Positions 3,841 through 27,521 of a DNA stretch of 64,000 nt are shown in pieces; position 1 is the stretch's first letter; every line of letters starts with the position of its first letter. The position numbers and the translations under genes were made by a program. This DNA is from Mytilus trossulus (Eukaryota). The notes under the pieces were generated by a model. The model had not been told where the DNA came from. It worked only from the letters and a program-made list of their open reading frames with translations, and did no database searches. Location: the NCBI RefSeq assembly GCF_036588685.1, contig NC_086382.1, positions 76,942,001-77,006,000 on the forward strand, written 5' to 3'.

Positions 3841-4629
3841 AGAACAATGTTTTTTAATTCAATCTAAAAACATCAAAGTGAAGAAACTTTTGCATTCTAA
3901 AAGATATATTTTGAAATCATATTACTGACAAATCCTTCCTTATATATAATTATCTTTCTATCTTATTTTATTGACTAAAAGGAATCATGTTCACAACCTA
4001 CATGTCTATGAATTATTAATACTGGGTAAATGATATTCCTTCTCTTGAAAATCCATATAACTTATGAAACAAAACGGTAACCGGATACAAATTATATAAA
4101 AGAGAAACAAATGATTGATATCTTTATCCAACAAAAAGGGGGATATGTTTACTGACATATCCTGCCTTATACTAGTATATAACTATCTTTCTATCTTATT
4201 TTATTGACTAGATGTTTATTTGAATAATATGAAACAAAACGGTAACCAGATACAAATTATATAAAAACATATCACACAAAAAGGGGTATATGTTCAGAGT
4301 ATTAATTCAGTTTAACTATAGAAAAAAACAGGTTTCACGCTCAGAAAGGATAACATAATGAAAGAGAAGATATTTTAGATTTCCTTGTTTTAATATTTAA
4401 AAAAAAACCAAATGGAACAAAAATTAATAGTTGACATGTATATGCGTACACAAGATTAAATGATCACAAAATGGCATTAGCACACCTATGTTTTAGATTT
4501 AAAGATAGAGTTAGGGTAAGGATTAAGGTTAGGTTCACAGATATTGAATTCATCGACGAAGACATGACACATACACAGGTTGTATGAACAGTAACACTTT
4601 ATGTACAGAAAAAAAAGAACACCAACTGG

Positions 4630-6725
4630 CTAATAATTACCATCAGTCGCTTGCTTTCACAGCGTTGTTAATAATTACCATCAGTCGCTTGGTTCTACAG
4701 TGTTGTTGATAAGTACCATCAGTCGCTTGCCTAGGTTTCACAGGACTGTTAATAATAACCACCAGTCCCTTGTCAGGTTTCATAGTGTTGTTTACAAATT
4801 ACCATCAGTCATTTACCTGGTTTCACAGTGTTGTTAACAATCAACATCGTTCGCTTGCTTGGTTTCACAGTGTTGTTAACAATCACCATCAGTCGCTTTC
4901 CTGGTTTCACAGTGTTGTTGATAATTACCATCAGTCACTTGCCTGGTTTCACAGTGTTGTTAATAATTACCATCAGTCACTTGCCTGGTTTCACAGTGTT
5001 GTTAATAATTACCATCAGTCACTTGCCTGGTTTCACAGTGTTGTTGATAATTACCATCAGTCGCTTGCCTGGTTTCACAGTGTTGTTAATAATTACCATC
5101 AGTTGCTTGCCTGGTTTCACAGTGTTGTTAATAATTACTATCAGTCGCTTGCCTGGTTTCACAGTGTTGTTTATAATTAACATCAGTCGCTTGCCTGGTT
5201 TTACAGTGTTGTTAATAAGTACCATCAGTCGCTTGCCTAGGTTTCACAGTGTTATTATTCATTACCATCAGTCGCTTGCCTGGTTTCACAGTGTTATTAT
5301 TAATTAACATCAGTCGCTTGCCTGGTTTCACAGTGTTGTTAATAATTAACATCAGTCGCTTGCCTGGTTTTACAGTGTTGTTGATAATTACTATCAGTCG
5401 CTTGTCTGGTTTTACAGTGTTGTTAATAATTACTATCAGTCGATTGGTTTACAGTGTTGTTAATAATTACCATCAATCGCTTGCCTGGTTTCACAGTGTT
5501 GCTAATAGTTACCATCAGTCACTTGCCTGGTTTCACAGTGTTGTTGATAATTACCATCAGTCGCTTGCCTTGTTTTACAGTGTTGCTAATAATTACCATC
5601 AGTCGCTTGCCTTGTTTTACAGTGTTGCTAATAATTACCATCAGTCGCTTGCCTTGTTTTACAGTGTTGCTAATAATTACCATCAGTCGCTTGCCTTGTT
5701 TTACAGTGTTGCTAATAATTACCATCAGTCGCTTGCCTTGTTTTACAGTGTTGCTAATAATTACCATCAGTCGCTTGCCTGGTTTCACAGTGTTGCTAAT
5801 AATTACCATCAGTCGCTTGCCTTGTTTTACAGTGTTGCTAATAGTTACCATCAGTCGCTTGCCTTGTTTTACAGTGTTGTTAATAATTACCATCAGTCGC
5901 TTGCCTTGTTTTACAGTGTTGCTAATAATTACCATCAGTCGCTTGCCTTGTTTTACAGTGTTGCTAATAATTACCATCAGTCGCTTGCCTTGTTTTACAG
6001 TGTTGCTAATAATTACCATCAGTCGCTTGCCTTGTTTTACAGTGTTGCTAATAATTACCATCAGTCGCTTGCCTTGTTTTACAGTGTTGCTAATAATTAC
6101 CATCAGTCGCTTGCCTTGTTTTACAGTGTTGCTAATAATTACCATCAGTCGCTTGCCTTGTTTTACAGTGTTGCTAATAATTACCATCAGTCGCTTGCCT
6201 GGTTTCACAGTGTTGCTAATAATTACCATCAGTCGCTTGCCTTGTTTTACAGTGTTGCTAATAGTTACCATCAGTCGCTTGCCTTGTTTTACAGTGTTGT
6301 TAATAATTACCATCAGTCGCTTGCCTTGTTTTACAGTGTTGTTAATAATTACCATCAGTCGCTTGCCTTGTTTTACAGTGTTGCTAATAATTACCATCAG
6401 TCGCTTGCCTTGTTTTACAGTGTTGTTAATAATTACCATCAGTCGCTTGCCTTGTTTTACAGTGTTGCTAATAATTACCATCAGTCGCTTGCCTGGTTTT
6501 AAAGTGTTGTTAATAATAAACAACAGTTTCTTGCCTGGTTTCACAGTGTTGTTTATAATAAAGATCAGTCGCTTGCCTGGTTTCACAGTGTTGTTAATAA
6601 TTACCATCAGTCACTTGGTTTCACAGTGTTATTAATAAATACCATCAGTCACTTGCCTGGTTTCACTGTGTTGGTAATACTAAACATCAGTCACTTGCCT
6701 GGTTTCACAGTGTTGTTAATAATTA
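4630..6725 (+). repeat. 42-bp minisatellite, ~50 units, copy 1
   Basis: Unit AATAATTACCATCAGTCGCTTGCCT(T/G)GTTT(T/C)ACAGTGTTG(C/T)T; homogeneous core with degenerate edges. Confidence 0.98.
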
Positions 6726-8414
6726 AAACAATATTTTTGTTATCTTTAAATGCATTTGTGTATGTAAATCTTTTAATTTTTTAATTTTTTGGTATAAGAC
6801 AACAACCATATTATACATTTAATTATTGGTTTGTAACGATGAGTAATATCTGGTGTATTTCTTCTGTAGGCATAAAGTATTGATGCTGCAGGCTCTTAGT
6901 TCAGGGAATTTATTCCAAACTTTTGTAGTTTGGAAAACGAATGAATATGGTAACTAACTTTGTTGCATCGAATTTGTCTGTATAGTTGTTTGTGATAAGA
7001 CCTGGAATTGTGGTCATAAATCTTTCGAATCTTTTAGACCCGGATATCAACCAATCAAAATACAGGATTTGTTGTTGCGAGCACAATTTTACTCCGAGTA
7101 CCGGTGTTTGTTTAGCTTCAGATTAGGGTTAGGTTACCATACAGTATAGCAATTTTGTTGTTCAACGTGTTTTATCTGCTTTAAATGTTTGCTATGTGAA
7201 CGCTTTCCTTCCACAATGAGAAAACGAAATCGTAATCGTCAATAAAATTTCCGTACATGGAAAATATGAATCAATTCAACTTGTTGATATTGATGTGGGA
7301 AAGACCTTCTGATGAGTTTCATTCATATATTACAATTAAACTTAGATTTGAATCTTCTCCGTGAGTTTTATACCAAGTAAACGTAGATTTCAATGTTCTC
7401 TGAGAGTTTTCGTGCGAAGTAAACATTTATTTAAACAGCTAGATCTTCTACAAGAGCTCATAAATCAATATGCATATAATCAAAATAAAATAAAAACATA
7501 GATAAATTTTTGACACGAATTAATAATTAAAATGAAACTTGGAGATTAAAGTTTTAAGATATTTCTAGAAGAGTCTTGATACAGAATTCAAATTATAAAG
7601 TTAAGGCAATGAGTTTTTAAACAAAATAATTTTGGGGGAAATGATTTTTTTCCTAATTACTTACGCGCGTCTGGCGTATTAAAGATAACTTTAAGAACTT
7701 TTTACTTCCTCTCAGTTTAAAAAAAAAGTCGACAAATGAATTTTTTTATTTAATTCTTGTTCAAGAACACATAAAACAGAATAATTCAGATAAATCCTCA
7801 AGTCACTAAAAAGTAGTATACTCCATTGATAACAACATAAGGCATAAAACTTTTGTATAATTGTATTTCAAAAAATGTTAACATACATTTTGTTTATAAA
7901 TTAATATCAGCAGCTGTCAACTTATCAGTGGAATATTGAAAGGATACATAAAAAAGCTTGGTTTCATGAAGTAAAACTATACATCAAGAAAAGCTTGGTT
8001 CATGAAGTAAAAAATGTAACAAGCACATTTGGTAAACAAAATATAAAAAGTGTTTAGAAATAAAATAAAAAAAGATTTAGTAAATATGATATAGGTAAAC
8101 AATTATCCCATTTTATGAAGTCATTTGTTAACCTTGAGAACATACTGTTTTATTCAAGTGATTTCAACCGATATCAAAGGATATCTATATATTTTCTTTT
8201 TTCATCGCATTGATTAAATTCTAAATGACTTTCTCAGACATTTTTGTTTGGCTTGACAAATACAGATTTAACTATTTTTTATTTCATTACCAATATTTTA
8301 ATTGCCAATTAGTGGTTTCTCATCTGAAACTGAAACCTTTTAAATTACAATTTTTTTTTTCTTGCTTGATGCATTTAAACACAAAACAGTTTCTCTTTAT
8401 GTAAGAGACTTTTG

Positions 8415-8548
8415 TGACGTGTTCTTTTATAAGTTGAACATATTTATAAAGTCCTGTGTTCTGCAGCGCCCTTGTCATTCCAGTGGTGATCAACGTCGAC
8501 AGTGGGTCTTTATTGGAGCGGGAAGCAAGTTCATATTGTGAAAAAGAG
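8415..8548 (+). promoter_or_regulatory. Predicted core promoter and non-coding exon 1 of the GH5-like gene (copies at 19824-19957 + and 56878-57011 -)
   Basis: TGACGT at 8415, TATAAA at 8445-8450, Inr-like TCATTC at 8475-8480 (A+1 is 32 nt after the TATA start), splice donor GAG|GTAAAT at 8548/8549. Confidence 0.6.
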
Positions 8549-9373
8549 GTAAATGTTTTATATTATATATTTTACAAGGTTTTCTTTTATGAATATTGAA
8601 ACATTCAAAATGACAAGAAAAAATTAAAATCACAAAACTCCTAAATCGAAACACAAAGGAAAATTCAAGACAAAAAAGCCAAAATCAAAAGTTCAAACAC
8701 ATCAAACGAATGGATAACATCTCTGATATTCCTGACTTGGTACATGCATTTTCTGATTTAGAAAATGGTGGATTGAACTCGGTTGTATAGCTAGCTAAAC
8801 CTCTCACTTGGATGACAGTCGCATCAAATTCCATAATATTGACAATGATGTGCGAACAAACTAAACAGACACAAAAGGTTAAAATGCTTCAACCAATAAT
8901 GCTAACCCCAACAAAAACATGGGATGATATCACATGTGAAATCCGTCGTGTATTGCTTATTCTATTACAAAGCCGATTCATACTCTTAATTCAGTAAGTC
9001 ATATTCGTGAAATACGAACGCGATTTAGCCATGTGTTTACGGACTTTCTAATTGAATTTTCCTCGGAGTTCAGTATTTTGTCATTTAACTTTTTTGCAGT
9101 TAGGACATAAGAAATATATCCAATATCACATGTGAAACACATAATCCATAACGGTCAACCCACTCGTGATGGCGTCTGCAAGATTTACGAAGTGATAATT
9201 TCAACTTCACCATTTGGAACTTTGGAAAAGGTCAGAATTCAGAAGCTGAAATTAACATTTTGTCGTAAAGTTTTGATTTCAACCGACCCTTTTGTCAATT
9301 TCTAGATAAAATCCTTATCAAAAGTCATAAAATGTCAAAAGCTCAAATACTTATGCGTTTGTTTGTTTTTCAG
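8549..9373 (+). other. Predicted 5'UTR intron (825 bp) of the GH5-like gene, filled with repeat fragments (copies at 19958-20782 + and 56053-56877 -)
   Basis: GT at 8549. Acceptor tttgtttgtttttcag ends at 9373, 20 nt before the ATG. Contains a minus-strand PLE RT relic (LRKSCRRHHEWVDRYG, ~9100-9300) and a dispersed repeat (~8700-8850) also seen near 60085-60200. Confidence 0.6.
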
Positions 9374-9393
9374 CACCTAAAGAATACGTTATA

Positions 9394-10470
9394 ATGTTCC
9401 AGATACATCCTAAAATGATGACAATTGTGGTATTAGTTATCATATGTGCATTCTGTTTGAAAGATTCTTTAGCCAGACATAATCCATATACACCAACTAA
9501 ATACCAGAAGAAGATAGCTCAAGGATTTTCCACGAATTATTTCAAAACCCTCAATTTCAAGAAATACAACAAGAAAAACTTAGCTGATATTTATGAACGA
9601 GGTTTTAGAAATGTACGATTAAGATGTAGAGCAGATCTTGACAATTTAAACATGGCTATCTTTTTGGATAATTTAGAGACTGTCGTGAACGATTGTCTTG
9701 CTACGAACATTGCTCCAATAATTTCTTGGATCCATCACGAGGCCGAAGCTTTCGCTACTGAATCACATCGAACCAATTATTTGAAGTGGTGGAGACGAGT
9801 TGCTGAAAAGCTGAAAGATAAGGACTACAGACTTTCATTCAACCTATTTACAGAACTAGGAGTCGACTCATGTGAAAATGAGTGCGCACAAAGTCTCAGA
9901 GAAAACACAGCAAAATACAACGACTGGACATCTGCTGTCGTAAAAAAGATAAGAAAATCCGGCGGAAAGAATGATAAACGGATGCTGATTCTAGGTTCTC
10001 CAAAGAAAACTGCTAAAGGATTAGAAGAAATCGACCAAAATATTTATAAAAACGATCCTTATATGATGGCAGAGTGGCATATCTATGCATCCGGACCAAA
10101 TAAAAAACTAACGAACGACGGAAATCCAGGTCAAAAATATTGGTCTGGGACTGGCGACGATTTTGGAAAAAGTAATGTCATGCTTGCCATCGGATATGCA
10201 AACTATTTTACATCATTTTACAATTTGACCACTTATCTTGGTGCTTGGATGCCACAAGCTAATGAATTCGGGGACTTGAACCAATCGGAAATCATTAATT
10301 TTGGAAAATATTTTGTCCAAGTAATCAAACCGATCCCTTGGTCGATGAATGTTCTTGATACCTACTACGACACAAGGAACAGCGATTGGAAATTAGATGA
10401 CCAGGTTATCAAAGGTCAGACATTGAATATGTCACGAGTTCTGGATGAAATTATATCGGTTATGAAATGA
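9394..10470 (+). CDS. Secreted glycoside hydrolase family 5 (cellulase-fold)-like protein, 358 aa, intronless CDS, copy 1
   Basis: Hydrophobic signal peptide (predicted cleavage near SLA|RH). GH5 barrel motifs occur in order: GFRNVRLR, ISWIHHE, FNLFTE154, KRMLILGS, AEWH229IY231, TYLGAW, IPWSMN. Confidence 0.88.
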   Translation: MFQIHPKMMTIVVLVIICAFCLKDSLARHNPYTPTKYQKKIAQGFSTNYFKTLNFKKYNKKNLADIYERGFRNVRLRCRADLDNLNMAIFLDNLETVVNDCLATNIAPIISWIHHEAEAFATESHRTNYLKWWRRVAEKLKDKDYRLSFNLFTELGVDSCENECAQSLRENTAKYNDWTSAVVKKIRKSGGKNDKRMLILGSPKKTAKGLEEIDQNIYKNDPYMMAEWHIYASGPNKKLTNDGNPGQKYWSGTGDDFGKSNVMLAIGYANYFTSFYNLTTYLGAWMPQANEFGDLNQSEIINFGKYFVQVIKPIPWSMNVLDTYYDTRNSDWKLDDQVIKGQTLNMSRVLDEIISVMK

Positions 10471-12454
10471 ATTCAGAAAAAACATTTTTTTTCCATGGTT
10501 TTTATACTAATTTATAAACACTAATATTAAGACATTCAATATAATTAGATCGTTTATTCGATATTCCATAAAAATATCGAGGAAATTTGAAATACATTCA
10601 AACAATTTACAAAGAAAACCCTCTATCGATCAAGTGAGATACCAAAAACGTTTGATACATTCTCTAAAAAGAAAGTTTAAAGGTACCAGTGACGTCATAA
10701 ATTTAGAAATTGTACACATGAAAATTGTCTCTTTATTATATTGTATTTGATATATTATCAGGTTTTTGTTAGATGATTCTATGTTATTTTTCTTTTTTCT
10801 TCTTTGCTGATTTATCACATGATTTAGATGAGTTATACTTAGCGTTTTCTGATACAGTATCTATCTTATGTTGACATATTTTTAACTTGTGTCATATATC
10901 CACTATAAATCCATTATGTTAATAAATACATATTTTCGTATAATATAACGCAGTGCGTGTAGTTGTAAGTTCATTTTCAATCTGTGAGTTTAAATGTCCC
11001 TCTGGTATCATTTGCCCTTATTTTGTAAACATAGATAAATCTGCTAATTTGCAAAAGCTGTTAGAAATGAAAAAAGAACAAGTGAGTGAAATTTTCCTCG
11101 GAGTTCAGTATTTTTGTGATTTTACTTCTTATTCTTTTTAACACCTGATCTTACAGTGTCCCACACTTCATTATAAAACATAAGATATAACATCACGAAT
11201 ATTCGTAGTTGAAATTAGTCACTTTATAATGGTTCTTTTCGAAAATTTAGAAACCAATGAACAGGTAACTGTTTTTTTGCCGTAACCAGGAAAACTGATA
11301 CCCACAAATAAAAGTTGCTCCACAATAATGTAATTTTCCTTAATATGATTACTTACTTAAAAAATGTATTTGGTTACATATTACTTACTGAAAAAGTGTA
11401 TTTGGTTACAGTGTGGTTAAGTTGTTTATAAGCAAATGTAAAAAAAAAATACATTCGTGCAGACAAATCTAATTTCAGATTATAATGATGTATGTTTGTA
11501 ACATACAGTAAGGGCATATATTATGTGATACATTGTTCTGGCTTTTGCGTCAATAAATAAAAACCCTCAACATGACGTTAACTCTCTGGCAACCAGGCAT
11601 CTGATCGAGGTTTTGTTGCCAATACTAGACCGTCATGAAAAAATTGATGTGGCAGAAATTAAAAAAAAAAGCAAGCTAAACAAAAAATAATACGAACGGC
11701 ACCTTGAAGAAAATAATTTCTCATTAGACAAAAACAAAAGAGACCTCGAGTCCAGTAAAGTAAAATGTGAAAATGATTCATTGATCAGATACTTTTGATT
11801 AGCAAAAAGATACAAAAGTGACAAAAACATACATGCATAAAGATGTAACTATAGACACGAATATAATACTAATACAGTTATATACATCATTGGTGGGATC
11901 AAATCAAAGTTCATTATTTCATAACCAACAGCATATTGGTAAAAACAAAAAGAACGTATTACAAAGACATGCCTCCATAAGTAATGATAAAATTACTGTA
12001 TTTAGCGAAAAAACATTTTCATTGCAGCTTTTAACTAGTGGTCCTCATGTTTGTTGTCTTTTCGTTGTTTTTGGTACGCGATTCACTATTAATCAAACCA
12101 TCATTATCTGTCTTCGAAATGAGTTTTGATTCAATATTCTCTTCACAAGTTTTGATTCGCGGTTCAATGTAAATTTTAACCGTTATATTTCAGTCTTCTC
12201 CATGAGTTTGATTCGATGCTTATTTTTATGATTTTGACAGTCAGCACTATGCAGAATATTTATACTAATGAAATAAATTTTCCCCTCTTGAACTAAGTAT
12301 ATAAATTTAGAAAATTGATTAAAATAAAATTGGTTTATTCTCGAAATGTTTTAGCAGGGGACCATTCAAAACACAGGTTCAATCTTACGTAATGAATACA
12401 GATATAGACATAACTTATATTGCTTCAAATAAAATCAACGGTACCAATTTTGTT

Positions 12455-12498
12455 ACACCAGATGCGCATTTCGACAAAACATGTCTCTTCAGTGATGC
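12455..12498 (-). ncRNA. Minimal type I hammerhead ribozyme with intact core, copy 1
   Basis: Minus strand reads GCAUCA CUGAAGA GACA-UGUUU-UGUC GAAA U-GCGC-A UC UGGUGU: stem I GCAUCA/UGGUGU, CUGANGA core, 4-bp stem II, GAAA, palindromic stem III, AUC cleavage triplet. Confidence 0.82.
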
Positions 12499-12714
12499 TC
12501 GTGGCCAAAATATTTGAAATCCAAAGCTTATATAAAGGATGAAGAGCTATAATCATATCAAACATAGGTGTGAAACAATTTTAATTTGTTAATACCTAGC
12601 ATGCAAAACAAGTATCTTCACCATAACTGTTTTTTTTTTCATTGCATTCTGAAGGAATATGAGTTTATAATAATCGAATTTAAATTGTAATAGATATTTA
12701 TTTAGCTATATTGC

Positions 12715-12880
12715 GTCGGGGAGGGGGTTGGGGTCCTGATCCCAAAATCCCGAGGTCCCGAATTTAAAAAAAGACCCAAAGATACCGAAATCGCATGATT
12801 AAAAATACCCGATCCCGACGTCCCAAAAAATGTCCTGCCCCTCATCTCCCGACCCAAACCCCCCAACCCCAACCCCCTCA
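12715..12880. repeat. Short GC-rich dispersed element with G-rich/C-rich complementary ends (copies at 24124-24289 and 52546-52711)
   Basis: Begins ggggagggggttgggg, ends cccccaaccccaacccc, with internal atcccg motifs. Confidence 0.5.
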
Positions 12881-12952
12881 TATTGTGTATTTTTATACTT
12901 CTGCTAGTCTTTGCAATTAGACCGGTTTTCATTCGTTCAATAATCTAACTTC

Positions 12953-13411
12953 AGATAGTGAATGAATGATGCGTAAACGCTACCTAACTTTTGTTATATC
13001 TCGAGATATGGAATAAATGATGTGTAGACGCTACCTCTCTTTCGTTATATCACGACATAGTGTATGAAAAATGTGTAGACGCTACCTAAATTTTGTCATA
13101 TCACGAGATAGTGAATGGATGATGTGTAGACGCTACTTCTCTTTCGTTATATCACGACATAGTGTATGAAAAATGTGTAGACGCTACCTTAATTTGGCAT
13201 ATCACGAGATAGTGAATGGATGATGTGTAGAAGCTACCTAGTTTTCGTTATATCACGAGATAGTGAATGGATGATGTGTATACGCTCACTTGTTTTCGTT
13301 ATATAACGAGATATTGAATGGCTGATGTGTATACGCTCACTTATTTTCGTTATATATCGAGGGAGTGAATGAATGATGTGAAGACGCTACCTATTTTTTG
13401 TTATATCACGA
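12953..13411 (+). repeat. 51-bp minisatellite, 9 units (copies at 24362-24820 and 52015-52473 inverted)
   Basis: Unit ~AGATAGTGAATGGATGATGTGTAGACGCTACCTNNTTTTCGTTATATCACG. Confidence 0.92.
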
Positions 13412-13489
13412 GTTTGTCGTTCAATAAACGACAATAAGGCGACAATAAGCTTCAACAAACGACTCTTAAGCGCCAAAAACTTAAGACGG

Positions 13490-13885
13490 AAACTGAGTCT
13501 GGCACAAATACAAAATATCAATCCCGGTATCTTTGATGAATTCATTTACAACCACTGGGTCGATGACACTGTTTGTGGGGTTTTCATTGCCCGAAGGTTT
13601 CATCAGACCAGTAGTCAGCAATTCTGTCTTCACTTTAATTGTCGTTGATTAACAGTTAACAGAGTTTTGATTTTTTTTTATACTAAGCCGCTCTCTGACC
13701 TTTGGAATAGATTAACTTAGCTGTATTTGGCAAAACATTTGGTCCTTAGTGAACATATATTCCTCGTACTTTGTTTGGCATTTATTTGGCCTTTTTTTAT
13801 ACTATCGTCACCGATAAGTCTTTTGTAGACGAAACGCATGTCTGATGCAAATACAAAATTTCCATCCTGGTATCTATGATGAGCC
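13490..13885 (+). mobile_element. Degenerate retrozyme/pLTR-like unit (~345-nt period) with mutated hammerhead at 13805-13848 (copies at 24899-25294 and 51541-51936)
   Basis: The motif gtctg..caaatacaaaat..atcc.ggtatct.tgatga recurs at ~13497 and ~13840. The core reads CCGATAA instead of CTGATGA, followed by gtcttttgtagac GAAA. Confidence 0.7.
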
Positions 13886-14326
13886 TCCTTCATTTAGTAA
13901 CAAGAACAAATATTTAATTAGTTTAGCGACAAGAAAATATATTAAGCGTTACAACATTTTAAACATTGTCTATTTCAAATAAAACGAATATCATAATCCT
14001 GTTACCTTTAATAGCATATATAGAAACATGCTTTAGTTTCTTTTTTAGTATACTTGTATTATAATCAGTTTACTATACTGTCAGACTAATGAATACATTT
14101 GTTTTGTTCAAAGTAAACAGGTTTTTTTTTATATATTTTAGATGAAATGTTTATTAATCAATATTTGAAACTTACCGGCGTAAAAAGGTATAAATGAAAA
14201 TGTTAAGACATTTTTTATGAACACTTCGTATAATCCGTTGATTGAAGGATTCGTTCATGCCGTATTATCTTAAAGTTAAAGTAATTTTGATTTGCATAAT
14301 CTATTTATCATTAGCTTCATTGTTGT

Positions 14327-14600
14327 AATAGTTATCAAAGATACCAGGATTATAACTTAGTACGCCAGACGCGCGTTTCGTCTACATAAGACTCATAGGT
14401 GACGCTCAAATCAAAATATTTATAAAACCAAACAAGTACAAAGTTGAAGAGCATTGAGGATCCAAAATTCCAAAAAGTTGTGCCAAATACGGCTTAGGTA
14501 ATGTATGCCTGGGATAAAAAAAAATCTTTAGTTTTTCGAAAAAGTTTTGTAAACAGGAAATTTATAAAAATTACCACATTATTGATATTAATCTTAACAC
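14327..14600 (-). mobile_element. Partial retrozyme/pLTR unit with mutated hammerhead at 14362-14405 (copies at 25736-26009 - and 50826-51099 +)
   Basis: gcgtca CCTATGA gtcttatgtagac GAAA cgcgcg TC tggcgt; the rest aligns to the 63514-63930 repeat. Confidence 0.8.
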
Positions 14601-14716
14601 TATTATCATATTCATAATACTTAAAATAAATGTCTGACATGTTTTTTTACTTTATAAATCTGAACATATTAAATTCTGTGTAATATGTCTTTTTTAGTGA
14701 AATGTCACTTATGATA

Positions 14717-14852
14717 GATATAGGAAGATGTGGTGTGAGTGCCAATGAGACAACTTTCCATCCGAGTAACAATTTAAAAAGTAAACCATTATAGGTTAAA
14801 GTACGGCCTTCAACACGGAGCCTTTGGCTCAAACCGAACAACAAGCTATAAA
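14717..14852 (-). mobile_element. SINE-like fragment (copies at 26126-26261 and 50574-50709; related piece at ~59610-59750)
   Basis: gtacggccttcaacacgga.c.ttggctca is shared with 59632-59662, and it has a ttgtctcattggcactcacaccacatcttc tail. Family assignment is from recognition only. Confidence 0.5.
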
Positions 14853-16038
14853 GTCTGTTTACCTATTATGAGAGGGTACAACAATTGCAGTATTTTGACA
14901 GGGTGTTTTTTCGCCTACTATTAATTATGATACAGAAGGAAAAAAATCTTTCTGACTTTATTTTAAATATACTTTTTGTCGTTAAAATCATGTATTTAAC
15001 ATTTTACATTTACTTATAATAACTAAACTATAATCCTGGTACCTTTGATAACTATTACCTTCAGATTTGAAATAACTGATATTTTTGTTTTTTACTTCTA
15101 ATAAAGTTGTTACCAATTACTAGTAGCCATAAAATACTTACTTTGCGCTCAATAAATCATATGATAGTGATGTATGAAATCAAAATAAAATTATAATAAA
15201 TTAAACTTTCCTTTGAAGGTAAAACGCAAATTGGGGGAATCAAATAAACCTGTGATCACAATATCAAATCAACTAAATGATCCCACCTGTTATTTACAGT
15301 CTATGAATAATTTATGATCCGATCAAACATAAGTATCATTAAATCAATCTGGAGGTAATGACCTTCAATTCGAAAAACTTATTTCTTATTTGAAAAAAAT
15401 CATATATTATATATTCACACAGTAAATAGCTTTGTAATTGTGTATTATATCATCAAAGTCGATAGCTTACTTAAAGACGTTCACCAATCAACCAAACGAT
15501 AATAAGCTACTGAAAAATGCACATGAAATTATGAAAAGCAAAATAGTGACCCGACAAAATGTAATTACATCAATTATATTTGCTAAACAAAAATGTATGA
15601 TATTGAATTATTTTCAAGCAAATGTATTTTTGAAATTCGCATAAGTGTAAACTTGTATGATTGAAAACAAAACAAACATATCACACAAAAAGGGGTATAT
15701 GTTCAGAGTATTAATTCAGTTTAACTATAGAAAAAAACAGGTTTCACGCTCAGAAAGGATAACATAATGAAAGAGAAGATATTTTAGATTTCCTTGTTTT
15801 AATATTTAAAAAAAAACCAAATGGAACAAAAATTAATAGTTGACATGTATATGCGTACACAAGATTAAATGATCACAAAATGGCATTAGCACACCTATGT
15901 TTTAGATTTAAAGATAGAGTTAGGGTAAGGATTAAGGTTAGGTTCACAGATATTGAATTCATCGACGAAGACATGACACATACACAGGTTGTATGAACAG
16001 TAACACTTTATGTACAGAAAAAAAAGAACACCAACTGG

Positions 16039-18134
16039 CTAATAATTACCATCAGTCGCTTGCTTTCACAGCGTTGTTAATAATTACCATCAGTCGCTTG
16101 GTTCTACAGTGTTGTTGATAAGTACCATCAGTCGCTTGCCTAGGTTTCACAGGACTGTTAATAATAACCACCAGTCCCTTGTCAGGTTTCATAGTGTTGT
16201 TTACAAATTACCATCAGTCATTTACCTGGTTTCACAGTGTTGTTAACAATCAACATCGTTCGCTTGCTTGGTTTCACAGTGTTGTTAACAATCACCATCA
16301 GTCGCTTTCCTGGTTTCACAGTGTTGTTGATAATTACCATCAGTCACTTGCCTGGTTTCACAGTGTTGTTAATAATTACCATCAGTCACTTGCCTGGTTT
16401 CACAGTGTTGTTAATAATTACCATCAGTCACTTGCCTGGTTTCACAGTGTTGTTGATAATTACCATCAGTCGCTTGCCTGGTTTCACAGTGTTGTTAATA
16501 ATTACCATCAGTTGCTTGCCTGGTTTCACAGTGTTGTTAATAATTACTATCAGTCGCTTGCCTGGTTTCACAGTGTTGTTTATAATTAACATCAGTCGCT
16601 TGCCTGGTTTTACAGTGTTGTTAATAAGTACCATCAGTCGCTTGCCTAGGTTTCACAGTGTTATTATTCATTACCATCAGTCGCTTGCCTGGTTTCACAG
16701 TGTTATTATTAATTAACATCAGTCGCTTGCCTGGTTTCACAGTGTTGTTAATAATTAACATCAGTCGCTTGCCTGGTTTTACAGTGTTGTTGATAATTAC
16801 TATCAGTCGCTTGTCTGGTTTTACAGTGTTGTTAATAATTACTATCAGTCGATTGGTTTACAGTGTTGTTAATAATTACCATCAATCGCTTGCCTGGTTT
16901 CACAGTGTTGCTAATAGTTACCATCAGTCACTTGCCTGGTTTCACAGTGTTGTTGATAATTACCATCAGTCGCTTGCCTTGTTTTACAGTGTTGCTAATA
17001 ATTACCATCAGTCGCTTGCCTTGTTTTACAGTGTTGCTAATAATTACCATCAGTCGCTTGCCTTGTTTTACAGTGTTGCTAATAATTACCATCAGTCGCT
17101 TGCCTTGTTTTACAGTGTTGCTAATAATTACCATCAGTCGCTTGCCTTGTTTTACAGTGTTGCTAATAATTACCATCAGTCGCTTGCCTGGTTTCACAGT
17201 GTTGCTAATAATTACCATCAGTCGCTTGCCTTGTTTTACAGTGTTGCTAATAGTTACCATCAGTCGCTTGCCTTGTTTTACAGTGTTGTTAATAATTACC
17301 ATCAGTCGCTTGCCTTGTTTTACAGTGTTGCTAATAATTACCATCAGTCGCTTGCCTTGTTTTACAGTGTTGCTAATAATTACCATCAGTCGCTTGCCTT
17401 GTTTTACAGTGTTGCTAATAATTACCATCAGTCGCTTGCCTTGTTTTACAGTGTTGCTAATAATTACCATCAGTCGCTTGCCTTGTTTTACAGTGTTGCT
17501 AATAATTACCATCAGTCGCTTGCCTTGTTTTACAGTGTTGCTAATAATTACCATCAGTCGCTTGCCTTGTTTTACAGTGTTGCTAATAATTACCATCAGT
17601 CGCTTGCCTGGTTTCACAGTGTTGCTAATAATTACCATCAGTCGCTTGCCTTGTTTTACAGTGTTGCTAATAGTTACCATCAGTCGCTTGCCTTGTTTTA
17701 CAGTGTTGTTAATAATTACCATCAGTCGCTTGCCTTGTTTTACAGTGTTGTTAATAATTACCATCAGTCGCTTGCCTTGTTTTACAGTGTTGCTAATAAT
17801 TACCATCAGTCGCTTGCCTTGTTTTACAGTGTTGTTAATAATTACCATCAGTCGCTTGCCTTGTTTTACAGTGTTGCTAATAATTACCATCAGTCGCTTG
17901 CCTGGTTTTAAAGTGTTGTTAATAATAAACAACAGTTTCTTGCCTGGTTTCACAGTGTTGTTTATAATAAAGATCAGTCGCTTGCCTGGTTTCACAGTGT
18001 TGTTAATAATTACCATCAGTCACTTGGTTTCACAGTGTTATTAATAAATACCATCAGTCACTTGCCTGGTTTCACTGTGTTGGTAATACTAAACATCAGT
18101 CACTTGCCTGGTTTCACAGTGTTGTTAATAATTA
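16039..18134 (+). repeat. 42-bp minisatellite, copy 2
   Basis: Same unit order as copy 1 (identical translations). Confidence 0.98.
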
Positions 18135-20802
18135 AAACAATATTTTTGTTATCTTTAAATGCATTTGTGTATGTAAATCTTTTAATTTTTTAATTTTTTG
18201 GTATAAGACAACAACCATATTATACATTTAATTATTGGTTTGTAACGATGAGTAATATCTGGTGTATTTCTTCTGTAGGCATAAAGTATTGATGCTGCAG
18301 GCTCTTAGTTCAGGGAATTTATTCCAAACTTTTGTAGTTTGGAAAACGAATGAATATGGTAACTAACTTTGTTGCATCGAATTTGTCTGTATAGTTGTTT
18401 GTGATAAGACCTGGAATTGTGGTCATAAATCTTTCGAATCTTTTAGACCCGGATATCAACCAATCAAAATACAGGATTTGTTGTTGCGAGCACAATTTTA
18501 CTCCGAGTACCGGTGTTTGTTTAGCTTCAGATTAGGGTTAGGTTACCATACAGTATAGCAATTTTGTTGTTCAACGTGTTTTATCTGCTTTAAATGTTTG
18601 CTATGTGAACGCTTTCCTTCCACAATGAGAAAACGAAATCGTAATCGTCAATAAAATTTCCGTACATGGAAAATATGAATCAATTCAACTTGTTGATATT
18701 GATGTGGGAAAGACCTTCTGATGAGTTTCATTCATATATTACAATTAAACTTAGATTTGAATCTTCTCCGTGAGTTTTATACCAAGTAAACGTAGATTTC
18801 AATGTTCTCTGAGAGTTTTCGTGCGAAGTAAACATTTATTTAAACAGCTAGATCTTCTACAAGAGCTCATAAATCAATATGCATATAATCAAAATAAAAT
18901 AAAAACATAGATAAATTTTTGACACGAATTAATAATTAAAATGAAACTTGGAGATTAAAGTTTTAAGATATTTCTAGAAGAGTCTTGATACAGAATTCAA
19001 ATTATAAAGTTAAGGCAATGAGTTTTTAAACAAAATAATTTTGGGGGAAATGATTTTTTTCCTAATTACTTACGCGCGTCTGGCGTATTAAAGATAACTT
19101 TAAGAACTTTTTACTTCCTCTCAGTTTAAAAAAAAAGTCGACAAATGAATTTTTTTATTTAATTCTTGTTCAAGAACACATAAAACAGAATAATTCAGAT
19201 AAATCCTCAAGTCACTAAAAAGTAGTATACTCCATTGATAACAACATAAGGCATAAAACTTTTGTATAATTGTATTTCAAAAAATGTTAACATACATTTT
19301 GTTTATAAATTAATATCAGCAGCTGTCAACTTATCAGTGGAATATTGAAAGGATACATAAAAAAGCTTGGTTTCATGAAGTAAAACTATACATCAAGAAA
19401 AGCTTGGTTCATGAAGTAAAAAATGTAACAAGCACATTTGGTAAACAAAATATAAAAAGTGTTTAGAAATAAAATAAAAAAAGATTTAGTAAATATGATA
19501 TAGGTAAACAATTATCCCATTTTATGAAGTCATTTGTTAACCTTGAGAACATACTGTTTTATTCAAGTGATTTCAACCGATATCAAAGGATATCTATATA
19601 TTTTCTTTTTTCATCGCATTGATTAAATTCTAAATGACTTTCTCAGACATTTTTGTTTGGCTTGACAAATACAGATTTAACTATTTTTTATTTCATTACC
19701 AATATTTTAATTGCCAATTAGTGGTTTCTCATCTGAAACTGAAACCTTTTAAATTACAATTTTTTTTTTCTTGCTTGATGCATTTAAACACAAAACAGTT
19801 TCTCTTTATGTAAGAGACTTTTGTGACGTGTTCTTTTATAAGTTGAACATATTTATAAAGTCCTGTGTTCTGCAGCGCCCTTGTCATTCCAGTGGTGATC
19901 AACGTCGACAGTGGGTCTTTATTGGAGCGGGAAGCAAGTTCATATTGTGAAAAAGAGGTAAATGTTTTATATTATATATTTTACAAGGTTTTCTTTTATG
20001 AATATTGAAACATTCAAAATGACAAGAAAAAATTAAAATCACAAAACTCCTAAATCGAAACACAAAGGAAAATTCAAGACAAAAAAGCCAAAATCAAAAG
20101 TTCAAACACATCAAACGAATGGATAACATCTCTGATATTCCTGACTTGGTACATGCATTTTCTGATTTAGAAAATGGTGGATTGAACTCGGTTGTATAGC
20201 TAGCTAAACCTCTCACTTGGATGACAGTCGCATCAAATTCCATAATATTGACAATGATGTGCGAACAAACTAAACAGACACAAAAGGTTAAAATGCTTCA
20301 ACCAATAATGCTAACCCCAACAAAAACATGGGATGATATCACATGTGAAATCCGTCGTGTATTGCTTATTCTATTACAAAGCCGATTCATACTCTTAATT
20401 CAGTAAGTCATATTCGTGAAATACGAACGCGATTTAGCCATGTGTTTACGGACTTTCTAATTGAATTTTCCTCGGAGTTCAGTATTTTGTCATTTAACTT
20501 TTTTGCAGTTAGGACATAAGAAATATATCCAATATCACATGTGAAACACATAATCCATAACGGTCAACCCACTCGTGATGGCGTCTGCAAGATTTACGAA
20601 GTGATAATTTCAACTTCACCATTTGGAACTTTGGAAAAGGTCAGAATTCAGAAGCTGAAATTAACATTTTGTCGTAAAGTTTTGATTTCAACCGACCCTT
20701 TTGTCAATTTCTAGATAAAATCCTTATCAAAAGTCATAAAATGTCAAAAGCTCAAATACTTATGCGTTTGTTTGTTTTTCAGCACCTAAAGAATACGTTA
20801 TA

Positions 20803-21879
20803 ATGTTCCAGATACATCCTAAAATGATGACAATTGTGGTATTAGTTATCATATGTGCATTCTGTTTGAAAGATTCTTTAGCCAGACATAATCCATATAC
20901 ACCAACTAAATACCAGAAGAAGATAGCTCAAGGATTTTCCACGAATTATTTCAAAACCCTCAATTTCAAGAAATACAACAAGAAAAACTTAGCTGATATT
21001 TATGAACGAGGTTTTAGAAATGTACGATTAAGATGTAGAGCAGATCTTGACAATTTAAACATGGCTATCTTTTTGGATAATTTAGAGACTGTCGTGAACG
21101 ATTGTCTTGCTACGAACATTGCTCCAATAATTTCTTGGATCCATCACGAGGCCGAAGCTTTCGCTACTGAATCACATCGAACCAATTATTTGAAGTGGTG
21201 GAGACGAGTTGCTGAAAAGCTGAAAGATAAGGACTACAGACTTTCATTCAACCTATTTACAGAACTAGGAGTCGACTCATGTGAAAATGAGTGCGCACAA
21301 AGTCTCAGAGAAAACACAGCAAAATACAACGACTGGACATCTGCTGTCGTAAAAAAGATAAGAAAATCCGGCGGAAAGAATGATAAACGGATGCTGATTC
21401 TAGGTTCTCCAAAGAAAACTGCTAAAGGATTAGAAGAAATCGACCAAAATATTTATAAAAACGATCCTTATATGATGGCAGAGTGGCATATCTATGCATC
21501 CGGACCAAATAAAAAACTAACGAACGACGGAAATCCAGGTCAAAAATATTGGTCTGGGACTGGCGACGATTTTGGAAAAAGTAATGTCATGCTTGCCATC
21601 GGATATGCAAACTATTTTACATCATTTTACAATTTGACCACTTATCTTGGTGCTTGGATGCCACAAGCTAATGAATTCGGGGACTTGAACCAATCGGAAA
21701 TCATTAATTTTGGAAAATATTTTGTCCAAGTAATCAAACCGATCCCTTGGTCGATGAATGTTCTTGATACCTACTACGACACAAGGAACAGCGATTGGAA
21801 ATTAGATGACCAGGTTATCAAAGGTCAGACATTGAATATGTCACGAGTTCTGGATGAAATTATATCGGTTATGAAATGA
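20803..21879 (+). CDS. Secreted GH5-like protein, copy 2
   Basis: Translation identical to copy 1. Confidence 0.88.
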   Translation: MFQIHPKMMTIVVLVIICAFCLKDSLARHNPYTPTKYQKKIAQGFSTNYFKTLNFKKYNKKNLADIYERGFRNVRLRCRADLDNLNMAIFLDNLETVVNDCLATNIAPIISWIHHEAEAFATESHRTNYLKWWRRVAEKLKDKDYRLSFNLFTELGVDSCENECAQSLRENTAKYNDWTSAVVKKIRKSGGKNDKRMLILGSPKKTAKGLEEIDQNIYKNDPYMMAEWHIYASGPNKKLTNDGNPGQKYWSGTGDDFGKSNVMLAIGYANYFTSFYNLTTYLGAWMPQANEFGDLNQSEIINFGKYFVQVIKPIPWSMNVLDTYYDTRNSDWKLDDQVIKGQTLNMSRVLDEIISVMK

Positions 21880-23863
21880 ATTCAGAAAAAACATTTTTTT
21901 TCCATGGTTTTTATACTAATTTATAAACACTAATATTAAGACATTCAATATAATTAGATCGTTTATTCGATATTCCATAAAAATATCGAGGAAATTTGAA
22001 ATACATTCAAACAATTTACAAAGAAAACCCTCTATCGATCAAGTGAGATACCAAAAACGTTTGATACATTCTCTAAAAAGAAAGTTTAAAGGTACCAGTG
22101 ACGTCATAAATTTAGAAATTGTACACATGAAAATTGTCTCTTTATTATATTGTATTTGATATATTATCAGGTTTTTGTTAGATGATTCTATGTTATTTTT
22201 CTTTTTTCTTCTTTGCTGATTTATCACATGATTTAGATGAGTTATACTTAGCGTTTTCTGATACAGTATCTATCTTATGTTGACATATTTTTAACTTGTG
22301 TCATATATCCACTATAAATCCATTATGTTAATAAATACATATTTTCGTATAATATAACGCAGTGCGTGTAGTTGTAAGTTCATTTTCAATCTGTGAGTTT
22401 AAATGTCCCTCTGGTATCATTTGCCCTTATTTTGTAAACATAGATAAATCTGCTAATTTGCAAAAGCTGTTAGAAATGAAAAAAGAACAAGTGAGTGAAA
22501 TTTTCCTCGGAGTTCAGTATTTTTGTGATTTTACTTCTTATTCTTTTTAACACCTGATCTTACAGTGTCCCACACTTCATTATAAAACATAAGATATAAC
22601 ATCACGAATATTCGTAGTTGAAATTAGTCACTTTATAATGGTTCTTTTCGAAAATTTAGAAACCAATGAACAGGTAACTGTTTTTTTGCCGTAACCAGGA
22701 AAACTGATACCCACAAATAAAAGTTGCTCCACAATAATGTAATTTTCCTTAATATGATTACTTACTTAAAAAATGTATTTGGTTACATATTACTTACTGA
22801 AAAAGTGTATTTGGTTACAGTGTGGTTAAGTTGTTTATAAGCAAATGTAAAAAAAAAATACATTCGTGCAGACAAATCTAATTTCAGATTATAATGATGT
22901 ATGTTTGTAACATACAGTAAGGGCATATATTATGTGATACATTGTTCTGGCTTTTGCGTCAATAAATAAAAACCCTCAACATGACGTTAACTCTCTGGCA
23001 ACCAGGCATCTGATCGAGGTTTTGTTGCCAATACTAGACCGTCATGAAAAAATTGATGTGGCAGAAATTAAAAAAAAAAGCAAGCTAAACAAAAAATAAT
23101 ACGAACGGCACCTTGAAGAAAATAATTTCTCATTAGACAAAAACAAAAGAGACCTCGAGTCCAGTAAAGTAAAATGTGAAAATGATTCATTGATCAGATA
23201 CTTTTGATTAGCAAAAAGATACAAAAGTGACAAAAACATACATGCATAAAGATGTAACTATAGACACGAATATAATACTAATACAGTTATATACATCATT
23301 GGTGGGATCAAATCAAAGTTCATTATTTCATAACCAACAGCATATTGGTAAAAACAAAAAGAACGTATTACAAAGACATGCCTCCATAAGTAATGATAAA
23401 ATTACTGTATTTAGCGAAAAAACATTTTCATTGCAGCTTTTAACTAGTGGTCCTCATGTTTGTTGTCTTTTCGTTGTTTTTGGTACGCGATTCACTATTA
23501 ATCAAACCATCATTATCTGTCTTCGAAATGAGTTTTGATTCAATATTCTCTTCACAAGTTTTGATTCGCGGTTCAATGTAAATTTTAACCGTTATATTTC
23601 AGTCTTCTCCATGAGTTTGATTCGATGCTTATTTTTATGATTTTGACAGTCAGCACTATGCAGAATATTTATACTAATGAAATAAATTTTCCCCTCTTGA
23701 ACTAAGTATATAAATTTAGAAAATTGATTAAAATAAAATTGGTTTATTCTCGAAATGTTTTAGCAGGGGACCATTCAAAACACAGGTTCAATCTTACGTA
23801 ATGAATACAGATATAGACATAACTTATATTGCTTCAAATAAAATCAACGGTACCAATTTTGTT

Positions 23864-23907
23864 ACACCAGATGCGCATTTCGACAAAACATGTCTCTTCA
23901 GTGATGC
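23864..23907 (-). ncRNA. Minimal type I hammerhead ribozyme, copy 2
   Basis: Duplicate of 12455-12498. Confidence 0.82.
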
Positions 23908-26900
23908 TCGTGGCCAAAATATTTGAAATCCAAAGCTTATATAAAGGATGAAGAGCTATAATCATATCAAACATAGGTGTGAAACAATTTTAATTTGTTA
24001 ATACCTAGCATGCAAAACAAGTATCTTCACCATAACTGTTTTTTTTTTCATTGCATTCTGAAGGAATATGAGTTTATAATAATCGAATTTAAATTGTAAT
24101 AGATATTTATTTAGCTATATTGCGTCGGGGAGGGGGTTGGGGTCCTGATCCCAAAATCCCGAGGTCCCGAATTTAAAAAAAGACCCAAAGATACCGAAAT
24201 CGCATGATTAAAAATACCCGATCCCGACGTCCCAAAAAATGTCCTGCCCCTCATCTCCCGACCCAAACCCCCCAACCCCAACCCCCTCATATTGTGTATT
24301 TTTATACTTCTGCTAGTCTTTGCAATTAGACCGGTTTTCATTCGTTCAATAATCTAACTTCAGATAGTGAATGAATGATGCGTAAACGCTACCTAACTTT
24401 TGTTATATCTCGAGATATGGAATAAATGATGTGTAGACGCTACCTCTCTTTCGTTATATCACGACATAGTGTATGAAAAATGTGTAGACGCTACCTAAAT
24501 TTTGTCATATCACGAGATAGTGAATGGATGATGTGTAGACGCTACTTCTCTTTCGTTATATCACGACATAGTGTATGAAAAATGTGTAGACGCTACCTTA
24601 ATTTGGCATATCACGAGATAGTGAATGGATGATGTGTAGAAGCTACCTAGTTTTCGTTATATCACGAGATAGTGAATGGATGATGTGTATACGCTCACTT
24701 GTTTTCGTTATATAACGAGATATTGAATGGCTGATGTGTATACGCTCACTTATTTTCGTTATATATCGAGGGAGTGAATGAATGATGTGAAGACGCTACC
24801 TATTTTTTGTTATATCACGAGTTTGTCGTTCAATAAACGACAATAAGGCGACAATAAGCTTCAACAAACGACTCTTAAGCGCCAAAAACTTAAGACGGAA
24901 ACTGAGTCTGGCACAAATACAAAATATCAATCCCGGTATCTTTGATGAATTCATTTACAACCACTGGGTCGATGACACTGTTTGTGGGGTTTTCATTGCC
25001 CGAAGGTTTCATCAGACCAGTAGTCAGCAATTCTGTCTTCACTTTAATTGTCGTTGATTAACAGTTAACAGAGTTTTGATTTTTTTTTATACTAAGCCGC
25101 TCTCTGACCTTTGGAATAGATTAACTTAGCTGTATTTGGCAAAACATTTGGTCCTTAGTGAACATATATTCCTCGTACTTTGTTTGGCATTTATTTGGCC
25201 TTTTTTTATACTATCGTCACCGATAAGTCTTTTGTAGACGAAACGCATGTCTGATGCAAATACAAAATTTCCATCCTGGTATCTATGATGAGCCTCCTTC
25301 ATTTAGTAACAAGAACAAATATTTAATTAGTTTAGCGACAAGAAAATATATTAAGCGTTACAACATTTTAAACATTGTCTATTTCAAATAAAACGAATAT
25401 CATAATCCTGTTACCTTTAATAGCATATATAGAAACATGCTTTAGTTTCTTTTTTAGTATACTTGTATTATAATCAGTTTACTATACTGTCAGACTAATG
25501 AATACATTTGTTTTGTTCAAAGTAAACAGGTTTTTTTTTATATATTTTAGATGAAATGTTTATTAATCAATATTTGAAACTTACCGGCGTAAAAAGGTAT
25601 AAATGAAAATGTTAAGACATTTTTTATGAACACTTCGTATAATCCGTTGATTGAAGGATTCGTTCATGCCGTATTATCTTAAAGTTAAAGTAATTTTGAT
25701 TTGCATAATCTATTTATCATTAGCTTCATTGTTGTAATAGTTATCAAAGATACCAGGATTATAACTTAGTACGCCAGACGCGCGTTTCGTCTACATAAGA
25801 CTCATAGGTGACGCTCAAATCAAAATATTTATAAAACCAAACAAGTACAAAGTTGAAGAGCATTGAGGATCCAAAATTCCAAAAAGTTGTGCCAAATACG
25901 GCTTAGGTAATGTATGCCTGGGATAAAAAAAAATCTTTAGTTTTTCGAAAAAGTTTTGTAAACAGGAAATTTATAAAAATTACCACATTATTGATATTAA
26001 TCTTAACACTATTATCATATTCATAATACTTAAAATAAATGTCTGACATGTTTTTTTACTTTATAAATCTGAACATATTAAATTCTGTGTAATATGTCTT
26101 TTTTAGTGAAATGTCACTTATGATAGATATAGGAAGATGTGGTGTGAGTGCCAATGAGACAACTTTCCATCCGAGTAACAATTTAAAAAGTAAACCATTA
26201 TAGGTTAAAGTACGGCCTTCAACACGGAGCCTTTGGCTCAAACCGAACAACAAGCTATAAAGTCTGTTTACCTATTATGAGAGGGTACAACAATTGCAGT
26301 ATTTTGACAGGGTGTTTTTTCGCCTACTATTAATTATGATACAGAAGGAAAAAAATCTTTCTGACTTTATTTTAAATATACTTTTTGTCGTTAAAATCAT
26401 GTATTTAACATTTTACATTTACTTATAATAACTAAACTATAATCCTGGTACCTTTGATAACTATTACCTTCAGATTTGAAATAACTGATATTTTTGTTTT
26501 TTACTTCTAATAAAGTTGTTACCAATTACTAGTAGCCATAAAATACTTACTTTGCGCTCAATAAATCATATGATAGTGATGTATGAAATCAAAATAAAAT
26601 TATAATAAATTAAACTTTCCTTTGAAGGTAAAACGCAAATTGGGGGAATCAAATAAACCTGTGATCACAATATCAAATCAACTAAATGATCCCACCTGTT
26701 ATTTACAGTCTATGAATAATTTATGATCCGATCAAACATAAGTATCATTAAATCAATCTGGAGGTAATGACCTTCAATTCGAAAAACTTATTTCTTATTT
26801 GAAAAAAATCATATATTATATATTCACACAGTAAATAGCTTTGTAATTGTGTATTATATCATCAAAGTCGATAGCTTACTTAAAGACGTTCACCAATCAA

Positions 26901-27521
26901 CCAAACGATAATAAGCTACTGAAAAATGCACATGAAATTATGAAAAGCAAAATAGTGACCCGACAAAATGTAATTACATCAATTATATTTGCTAAACAAA
27001 AATGTATGATATTGAATTATTTTCAAGCAAATGTATTTTTGAAATTCGCATAAGTGTAAACTTGTATGATTGAAAACAAAACAAAAAGATGCAATTTTTC
27101 AGAAAATTCCAAAGTTATATGCTTTATTAAATTCGTTCAGATTATTAAAATATTAGTATTCTCTGTTAAAATGCCAGCAGTTCAATGTATTTTAAAAATA
27201 AAGTATCAGAGTTATCTCTCTTTATATATCCAACTTTAATCTTCAAATGAGTAAAGGTCAAGTCAGGCGTTAAAATGTCTTCAAACGGCTGCAAGACTTC
27301 TTTTATTAAACTATCAATTTGGTTCGTTCGAAGATTTAGATAAACAGTCATGTGCTTTTGATACATTCCCGTGAAATACTAACATAAGACTACAATCTAC
27401 CCTCCGAAAAAGTTATTAGGAGATCTTTTGGCTGAAATACGAATGCCACCAATAGGTCTTCAACATAGCTGGTAGATAAGTGGTTTTCGTTATTCCTAAA
27501 CTGCTTTGTTACAAAATGTTC

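Follow-up and report, generated by a model that had tools for sequence, protein, structure and literature searches.

A GH5-fold protein family of animals and bacteria with alanine at the catalytic nucleophile position, seen from a Mytilus trossulus locus

The window considered here, i.e., the whole analysed stretch of 64,000 nucleotides from Mytilus trossulus, carries an intronless coding frame of 358 codons without internal stops, which is predicted to encode a barrel protein related to glycoside hydrolase family 5 (GH5) and which recurs in two further copies. The gene, its key codons and the duplicated blocks around it are as follows.

8448–8548, + strand: non-coding 5′ exon in spliced contigs, its start given by the reach of contig X1
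8549–9373, + strand: 825-nt GT..AG intron in the 5′ untranslated region (contigs X1, X3 and X9)
9394–10470, + strand: copy 1, coding sequence of the GH5-fold protein with Ala at the nucleophile site, 358 aa, intronless
9853–9855, + strand: codon GAA, Glu154, at the conserved acid/base position; Thr153 stands before it in place of Asn
10072–10086, + strand: E227-W-H229-I-Y231 on strand 6, with E227 as likely structural partner of R75
10243–10245, + strand: codon GCT, Ala284, GH5 catalytic nucleophile position by family-profile alignment and structure model
20803–21879, + strand: copy 2, with no base different from copy 1, within the tandem block 15674–27085
54956–56032, − strand: copy 3, with no base different from copy 1, within the inverted block 49750–58146
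4265–15676 and 15674–27085: tandem block pair, 100% identity
1–7281 and 42033–49313: block pair, 100% identity
7281–15676 and 49750–58146: inverted block pair, 99.98% identity
28278–37694 and 39351–48762: inverted block pair, 99.3% identity

Contigs from three of four runs of related mussels join the upstream exon to position 9374 across 8549–9373 and span the coding frame; the splice joint is evidence for transcription, and the RNA nature of the runs is a guess, none of the matching runs listed being recorded as RNA. The true start of the protein may be M8 or M9, which is the start site in most homologues. A single strong hydrophobic stretch at residues 11–21 near the N-terminus suggests that the protein is secreted; the pI calculated for the mature form is 9.0. 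Among named proteins its nearest relatives come from Mytilus (84–97% identity) and go by the public names "cellulase/esterase CelE-like" or GH5 domain protein. No Pfam family matches the protein itself, though PF00150 is present on most of its relatives; NCBIfam gave no match for the four members checked, and the ESM Atlas returned Cellulase clusters only and, once these were skipped, nothing at 0.9 or more. In the translated frame, all the residues named in the initial annotation were found at the positions given there: R75, H114, H115, the acid/base E154, H229 and Y231, together with T153-E154-L155 in place of the NEP motif, Y281-L-G-A284-W285 at strand 7 (A284 being GCT at 10243–10245), E227, E291 and N319.

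There is no nucleotide difference among the copies beginning at 9394, 20803 and 54956, and the blocks that bear them (8.4–11.4 kb) are 99.98–100% identical. Since the copies are identical, the triplication says nothing about selection; it either arose by very recent amplification or is an artefact of assembly, and the lack of contigs across the tandem junction near 15675 in four runs has no bearing on that choice. The gene had been judged not to be a pseudogene partly on account of its triplication. That argument falls away with the identity of the copies, but the judgement itself is upheld by the conservation of the family, by the spliced contigs and by a dN/dS of 0.27–0.32 against diverged paralogues (0.27 and 0.31 for the two about 0.8 Mb away), a ratio that shows the gene to be, by this measure, under purifying selection. 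A second, distant paralogue pair (L006–L011, about 49% identity) lies in the genome G000 at about 75.15–75.17 Mb of C8 and at about 2.46–2.51 Mb of C65, and in the copy on C65, L007, the nucleophile site holds Ser.

As for the surroundings, positions 1–58146 of the window form a patchwork of tandem and inverted blocks, arising from recent complex amplification or from mis-assembly. A broken retroelement, probably Penelope-like, lies at 171–2418 (− strand) and again near 32682–34842 (+ strand) and 42203–44363 (− strand), with a weak reverse-transcriptase match (E 0.0011) and an adjoining frame that holds what we take to be a GIY-YIG-like motif, without a Pfam match. A 42-bp tandem array of 50–55 copies (4631–6725, 16040–18134, 28078–30382 and 46663–48757) stays open for 360–500 codons in three frames; the Pfam matches on these frames were rejected as repeat artefacts. 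Each gene-bearing block also has a 51-bp minisatellite of nine copies (12953–13412, 24362–24821 and 52014–52473), and a short high-copy element, matched by many unrelated contigs, lies in the intron (about 8670–8860) and, in the opposite orientation, behind the gene (about 11090–11130).

In a sequence search against the PDB, the 358-aa protein matches GH5 structures (4IM4, E 5.5e-10). A structure model built on 104 sequences has a mean pLDDT of 94.5 and a pTM of 0.90, with strand 7 at residues 280–285 followed by coil at 286–296; its best Foldseek match has an E of 2.8e-15, GH5_4 and GH5_25 enzymes are nearest, and structural alignment gives a Z of 32.1 with an rmsd of 2.7 Å over 300 residues. 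We are therefore confident that the protein is, as modelled, a (β/α)8 barrel related to GH5, which bears out the fold first assigned to it from its motifs. The family profile aligns YLGAW with IVIGEW of 9BJX and IVIGAW of 9BMK, and WVGAW with YFGAF of 4U5I, YFGE of 4U3A and YIGAF of 3AZR. Through this agreement with the GEW, GEF and GAF motifs of solved GH5 enzymes, A284 is placed at the nucleophile position, and the model likewise puts it at the end of strand 7, so that the absence of the strand-7 nucleophile is confirmed. Of these entries, 9BMK, 4U5I and 3AZR are Glu-to-Ala laboratory mutants, which the A284 protein resembles at the nucleophile site. The reading of the last β-strand Trp as Asn fared less clearly: the ungapped register (IPWSMN against xxWAYW) and the model strand at 316–318 speak for N319, whereas HMMER and MAFFT both place a three-residue gap there.

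Among the features of a retaining GH5 enzyme, the protein has the acid/base Glu after strand 4, the Arg on strand 2 and the His and Tyr on strand 6. It lacks the nucleophile Glu at the end of strand 7, where A284 stands, and the Asn directly before the acid/base, where T153 stands. The protein is thus built on the GH5 scaffold but fails two features that define the retaining members, and it should not be filed as one. Compared with the GH5_25 and GH5_4 enzymes (TmCel5A, FnCel5A, CtCel5E, CelE and the Segatella copri GH5_4 enzyme 9BJX), it shares the barrel at a Z of about 30–32, the strand-2 Arg, the acid/base Glu, the strand-6 His-x-Tyr and the strand-7 G-x-W, at 12–20% identity in structural alignments. 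The mussel family differs from them in having Ala for the nucleophile Glu, Thr, Ile or Val for the Asn before the acid/base, Asn for the strand-8 Trp (by register), RxR for RxP and a new AS/AGP loop after the Tyr.

The protein had first been treated as one odd case, a view that does not survive comparison with its relatives. Of 120 close homologues, 115 align at position 284, with Ala there in 110 and Glu in 5, and all 120 share T153, E154 and E227. A wider count kept 266 domains from 352 sequences, reaching about 30% identity, with 86 left out as too short or unmatched and the own-genome loci L004 and L006 not included. In it, position 284 is Ala in 238, Glu in 13, Ser in 2, Gly in 1 and Lys in 1 of 255, and the residues around it are nearly fixed: E154 and H229 in 264/265 each, R75 in 256/256, R77 in 253/256, Y231 in 253/265 (Phe in 9/265), W285 in 254/255, N319 in 251/253 and E227 in 261/265. 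Asn at position 153 occurs in only 2/265. A full-library search also reached bacterial relatives near 30% identity; the bacterial profile hit 861 clusters at E 1e-10 or better (7,993 scored), some of which may be canonical GH5, and Ala stands at the nucleophile site in all 112 new bacterial proteins among the matches listed. Ala is therefore the rule in a large animal–bacterial group, and on these counts the loss of the nucleophile is not private decay. The conservation of E154, H229, R75, R77, Y231, W285 and N319 looks catalytic rather than merely structural. In the aligned rows, position 284 tolerates only small residues or Glu, the sole Lys row belonging to a Glu-form cluster.

Two glutamates had been proposed as a relocated nucleophile. 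For E291 the proposal is refuted: this residue is Glu in only 11/115 close homologues, varies even among Mytilus proteins, and lies in the coil after strand 7 in the model. E227, the only invariant acid besides E154 among the conserved columns, needs more care. In a solved GH5 structure, as described in a passage of PMC4643050, the strand-2 Arg bonds Asn22, Glu145 (four residues before the acid/base), Asn148 and the nucleophile; in the Ala284 family all four of these partners are changed and R75 stays. Solved canonical GH5 enzymes with Glu at the −4 position have Ser or Thr two residues before the strand-6 His in 7/7 aligned cases, and genome loci with Glu at −4 lack Glu two before the His in 3/3 (Gln, Thr and Thr). 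Where −4 is Ala, 9BJX and 4/4 readable loci have Glu two before the His; the motif was recovered from 9/11 loci, with one of the Ala loci unreadable and one distant locus holding Asn and Ser. In the Ala284 family, the −4 position (residue 150) is Asn or Asp, and all three Gln227 rows have Asp150. This alternation between the −4 Glu and a Glu next but one before the strand-6 His accounts for E227 without invoking catalysis; judged from sequence, E227 is likely a substitute partner of R75 with a structural role, though it might in addition serve as a base. The same Glu occurs in canonical, nucleophile-bearing GH5 enzymes as an apparent stand-in for that partner, and a nucleophilic role for E227 is disfavoured.

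The group is found in bivalves, cnidarians, an acoel, gut and marine bacteria and a jumbo phage. Named animal holders are Mytilus, Mercenaria, Nematostella, Actinia, Actinostola, Oculina, Pocillopora, Dendronephthya and Convolutriloba, and named bacterial holders are Clostridium, Anaerotignum, Angelakisella, Lachnospiraceae, Brevibacillus, Caldithrix, Kistimonas and an Opitutales genome. Drifted members with Gly at the nucleophile site and Phe for the Tyr occur in Salmonella (STM3799, L031:4932–6017) and Enterobacter (L012:14953–16026), lying between the dsd genes and emrD without sugar genes as neighbours. A DNA search at 80% cover found the enterobacterial gene in 0/5426 E. coli genomes. In the neighbourhood searches, only the centre genome matched among 300 gammaproteobacterial genomes (one not scored) and among 401 Opitutales genomes, and in sets of 401 and 301 Verrucomicrobiota genomes only the centre genome had a family member, the other matches being canonical GH5. 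A 176-kb phage contig also encodes a member (L028:10016–11296), which has a hydrophobic stretch at its N-terminus and a weak beta/gamma-crystallin tail and lies near baseplate genes, a sulfatase-like gene and a lytic transglycosylase.

In a tree of 79 family rows rooted with four canonical GH5 enzymes, in which long branches meet at the root, all 79 rows fall on one side of a branch with SH-aLRT 99. Every named animal falls in one clade (98), which is nested among proteins of bacterial type, although most rows are unnamed, and this clade adjoins a protein with bacterial Ig/cadherin and DUF4114 domains (99). Such nesting, taken with the intronless coding region, points to acquisition of the animal genes from bacteria. 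In a tree of 151 rows, the 8 Glu-bearing rows need 7 changes, all inside Ala clades; on this tree, then, Glu has been regained rather than retained, and it came back about seven times. Glu-regained rows (P0025, P0031, P0090, P0106, P0113, P0149 and P0301) mostly have Ala for Gly283. D322 is kept in 0/6 aligned Glu rows of the animal clade and in 53/62 Ala rows, which is suggestive (4 independent pairs, p 0.125).

Among 66 proteins scanned for domain partners, 19 carry a T9SS tail, 7 a CBM96 module and 5 a Gram-positive surface module. Choline-binding repeats occur in 2, a copper-amine-oxidase N domain in another 2, and SLH and PEP-CTERM in one each; none has a signalling or second catalytic domain. 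The bacterial members, judged by these modules, have the build of exported degradative enzymes. CBM96 is described as alginate-binding and as occurring on alginate, hyaluronate and pectate lyases in a passage of PMC9971899; the CBM96-bearing proteins come largely from one assembly and are not independent. Sulfatases or fucosidases lie next door in 3 of 13 genome or metagenome loci, six of the 13 coming from one assembly. In L013 the neighbours are a sulfatase nearest 6HR5, a PL6-like lyase and a gene resembling sugar-acid dehydratases; L019, with two family members, also holds three sulfatases and a fucosidase, and L024 has two fucosidases. Together these give a weak hint that the substrates may be sulfated, fucosylated or uronic-acid glycans. 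One metagenome assembly has 8 members on 6 contigs. Between two family members in L021 (2071–5133) lies a 1021-aa T9SS protein with two CBM96 modules, whose N-terminal domain of about 390 aa has no Pfam, NCBIfam or PDB match, and which is possibly a partner enzyme.

Two glutamates define catalysis in clan GH-A, and the textbook retaining mechanism of GH5 cannot operate without the attacking Glu. In GH5, two side chains hold the 2-OH of the cleaved sugar: the nucleophile and the Asn that precedes the acid/base. Here both holders are lost (Asn to Thr, Ile or Val at 153, Glu to Ala at 284), and E154 with its His, Arg and Tyr surroundings is kept almost throughout; the simplest catalytic reading is substrate assistance. 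The pocket under C1/C2 would open, still lined by R75, H229 and Y231, with R77 replacing a Pro and N319 replacing the Trp. An N-acetyl carbonyl, carboxylate or sulfate of the substrate could sit in this pocket and assist cleavage, and E154 would protonate the leaving group. The likely substrate would be an anionic or N-acetylated glycan (an algal or animal glycan bearing sulfate or fucose, or a polymer from the bacterial surface) rather than cellulose or mannan, and the role in the mussel, as a guess, may be digestion of, or defence against, filtered microbes. Our leading explanation, held tentatively and at somewhat below an even chance, is a secreted glycosidase with a single carboxylate, for which the substrate, probably such an anionic or N-acetylated glycan, provides the nucleophile.

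Families GH18, GH20, GH56, GH84 and GH85 are alike in having one catalytic Glu, no enzyme nucleophile and a Tyr near the anomeric centre. In GH18, GH20, GH84 and GH85, an orienting Asp or Asn stands one or two residues before the acid. These five families mostly have such an orienting second carboxylate near the acid, whereas positions 152–153 of the mussel family are F-T or L-I, i.e., hydrophobic or Thr, and Asn or Asp occurs only four residues before E154, at 150. Apart from E154 and E227, no invariant helper acid is found among the conserved columns, which also counts against substrate assistance. The best fold matches are GH5, and the five families are absent among the 50 matches listed, an absence that is no exclusion. 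According to the relevant part of PMC2822703, single-carboxylate glycosidases may be assisted by an acetamido or carboxylate group, carboxylate-assisted endosialidases included, and most of the acetamido-assisted families use a further carboxylate to orient the acetamido group; in hyaluronidase, a passage of PMC13080975 gives Asp110 with Glu112, the orienting carboxylate lying two residues before the acid. Against the leading explanation also stand the enterobacterial members, which lack adjacent sugar genes, and the 10/13 loci without a sulfatase or fucosidase, several of these being short contigs.

The change from Glu to Ala at the nucleophile site is the one crystallographers make to trap a substrate, as in entry 4U5I, titled E314A in complex with xylobiose. 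Since such a change traps substrate, binding without cutting explains the same residues, and the protein might be a natural substrate trap serving as a lectin, adhesin or pattern-recognition protein. This non-catalytic role, the main rival explanation, which we rate as possible but doubtful, would agree with the loss of the nucleophile, of the Asn before the acid/base and probably of the strand-8 Trp, with the lack of a helper acid, and with the cell-surface modules on many Firmicute members. There is also precedent: in the text of Aspeborg et al. 2012 (PMC3526467), GH5 lost its machinery several times (GH5_30, a Xanthomonas offshoot of GH5_1 and Rsi24C-GH5), and GH5_8-related lipoproteins likewise combine the fold with incomplete machinery; by their descriptions there, these groups are fungal, Xanthomonas-specific, lipoproteins or without the acid/base. 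Against a mere binder, E154, H229, R75 and Y231 are held at 95–100% over a very wide range; a CBM would be less economically appended to a binder than to an enzyme, and a fusion to a signalling domain was seen in none of the 66 proteins.

An inverting hydrolase is unlikely: water in the emptied pocket, held by R75 and Y231 and activated by E227 or via H229, would attack C1. Apart from E154, no acid but E227 is invariant, and the GH5_25-like outgroups lack it (Q, T and T at its position); GH97, in the part of PMC2670981 that treats its mechanism, holds retaining and inverting members through a relocated carboxylate, with outliers that have no nucleophile. GH97, though, is a different family and clan, no relocated base is evident in the mussel family, and E227 is accounted for by its alternation with the −4 Glu, the Arg partner in a GH5 structure (in the same passage of PMC4643050).

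A polysaccharide lyase or C5-epimerase on uronic-acid polymers, with H229 and Y231 as base and acid and with R75, R77 and N319 binding the carboxylate, is quite improbable. Sets of His, Tyr, Asn and Arg are typical of lyases, the new invariant Arg and Asn stand at strand ends, and the CBM96 fusions and the PL6-like neighbour fit such a substrate. But H229 and Y231 are plain GH5 inheritance, with Phe for Y231 in some members, the invariance of E154 is not called for, and no lyase appears among the 50 fold matches listed, which again is not an exclusion. Three further ideas were set aside: Tyr231 as a sialidase-type nucleophile, with Phe there in 9/265; a Ser-His-Glu esterase triad, with S233 being Ala or Gly in 84/265; and a phosphorylase, the members being apparently exported. 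That the gene is a decaying pseudogene, or encodes a normal retaining cellulase or mannanase in which E291 or some other Glu acts as nucleophile, is very improbable in spite of the public CelE-like names and the likeness of E291-F-G to GEFG, given that GAW aligns with the true motif, that E291 is poorly kept and in coil, and that spliced contigs and dN/dS oppose decay.

Taken broadly, we consider it an evenly balanced proposition that the group cleaves glycans by a mechanism not described for clan GH-A (substrate-assisted, inverting or eliminative), that the Glu re-evolved about seven times as a switch between two chemistries, and that the animal gene came from bacteria. The animal–bacterial Ala group does not appear in the consulted passages and supplement of the 2012 GH5 classification (PMC3526467), nor is it discussed in the available portions of PMC6011409 and PMC6587912. 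A full-text literature search, whose scope leaves most subscription papers and bioRxiv supplements outside, found no description of it and no paper for "STM3799" or "CelE-like". This is, then, a real, well-conserved and apparently undescribed GH5-fold variant, for which CAZy or dbCAN may already carry a subfamily number.

A large, strongly conserved group without one of the GH-A glutamates would mean either new glycosidase chemistry on the most-studied glycosidase scaffold or a family of lectins so far overlooked in corals, mussels and gut bacteria. Since Ala and Glu forms both occur in nature, a few recombinant proteins would be enough to test the matter directly. Either way, the names "cellulase" and "CelE-like" mislead, and animal cellulase counts that include these proteins are inflated.
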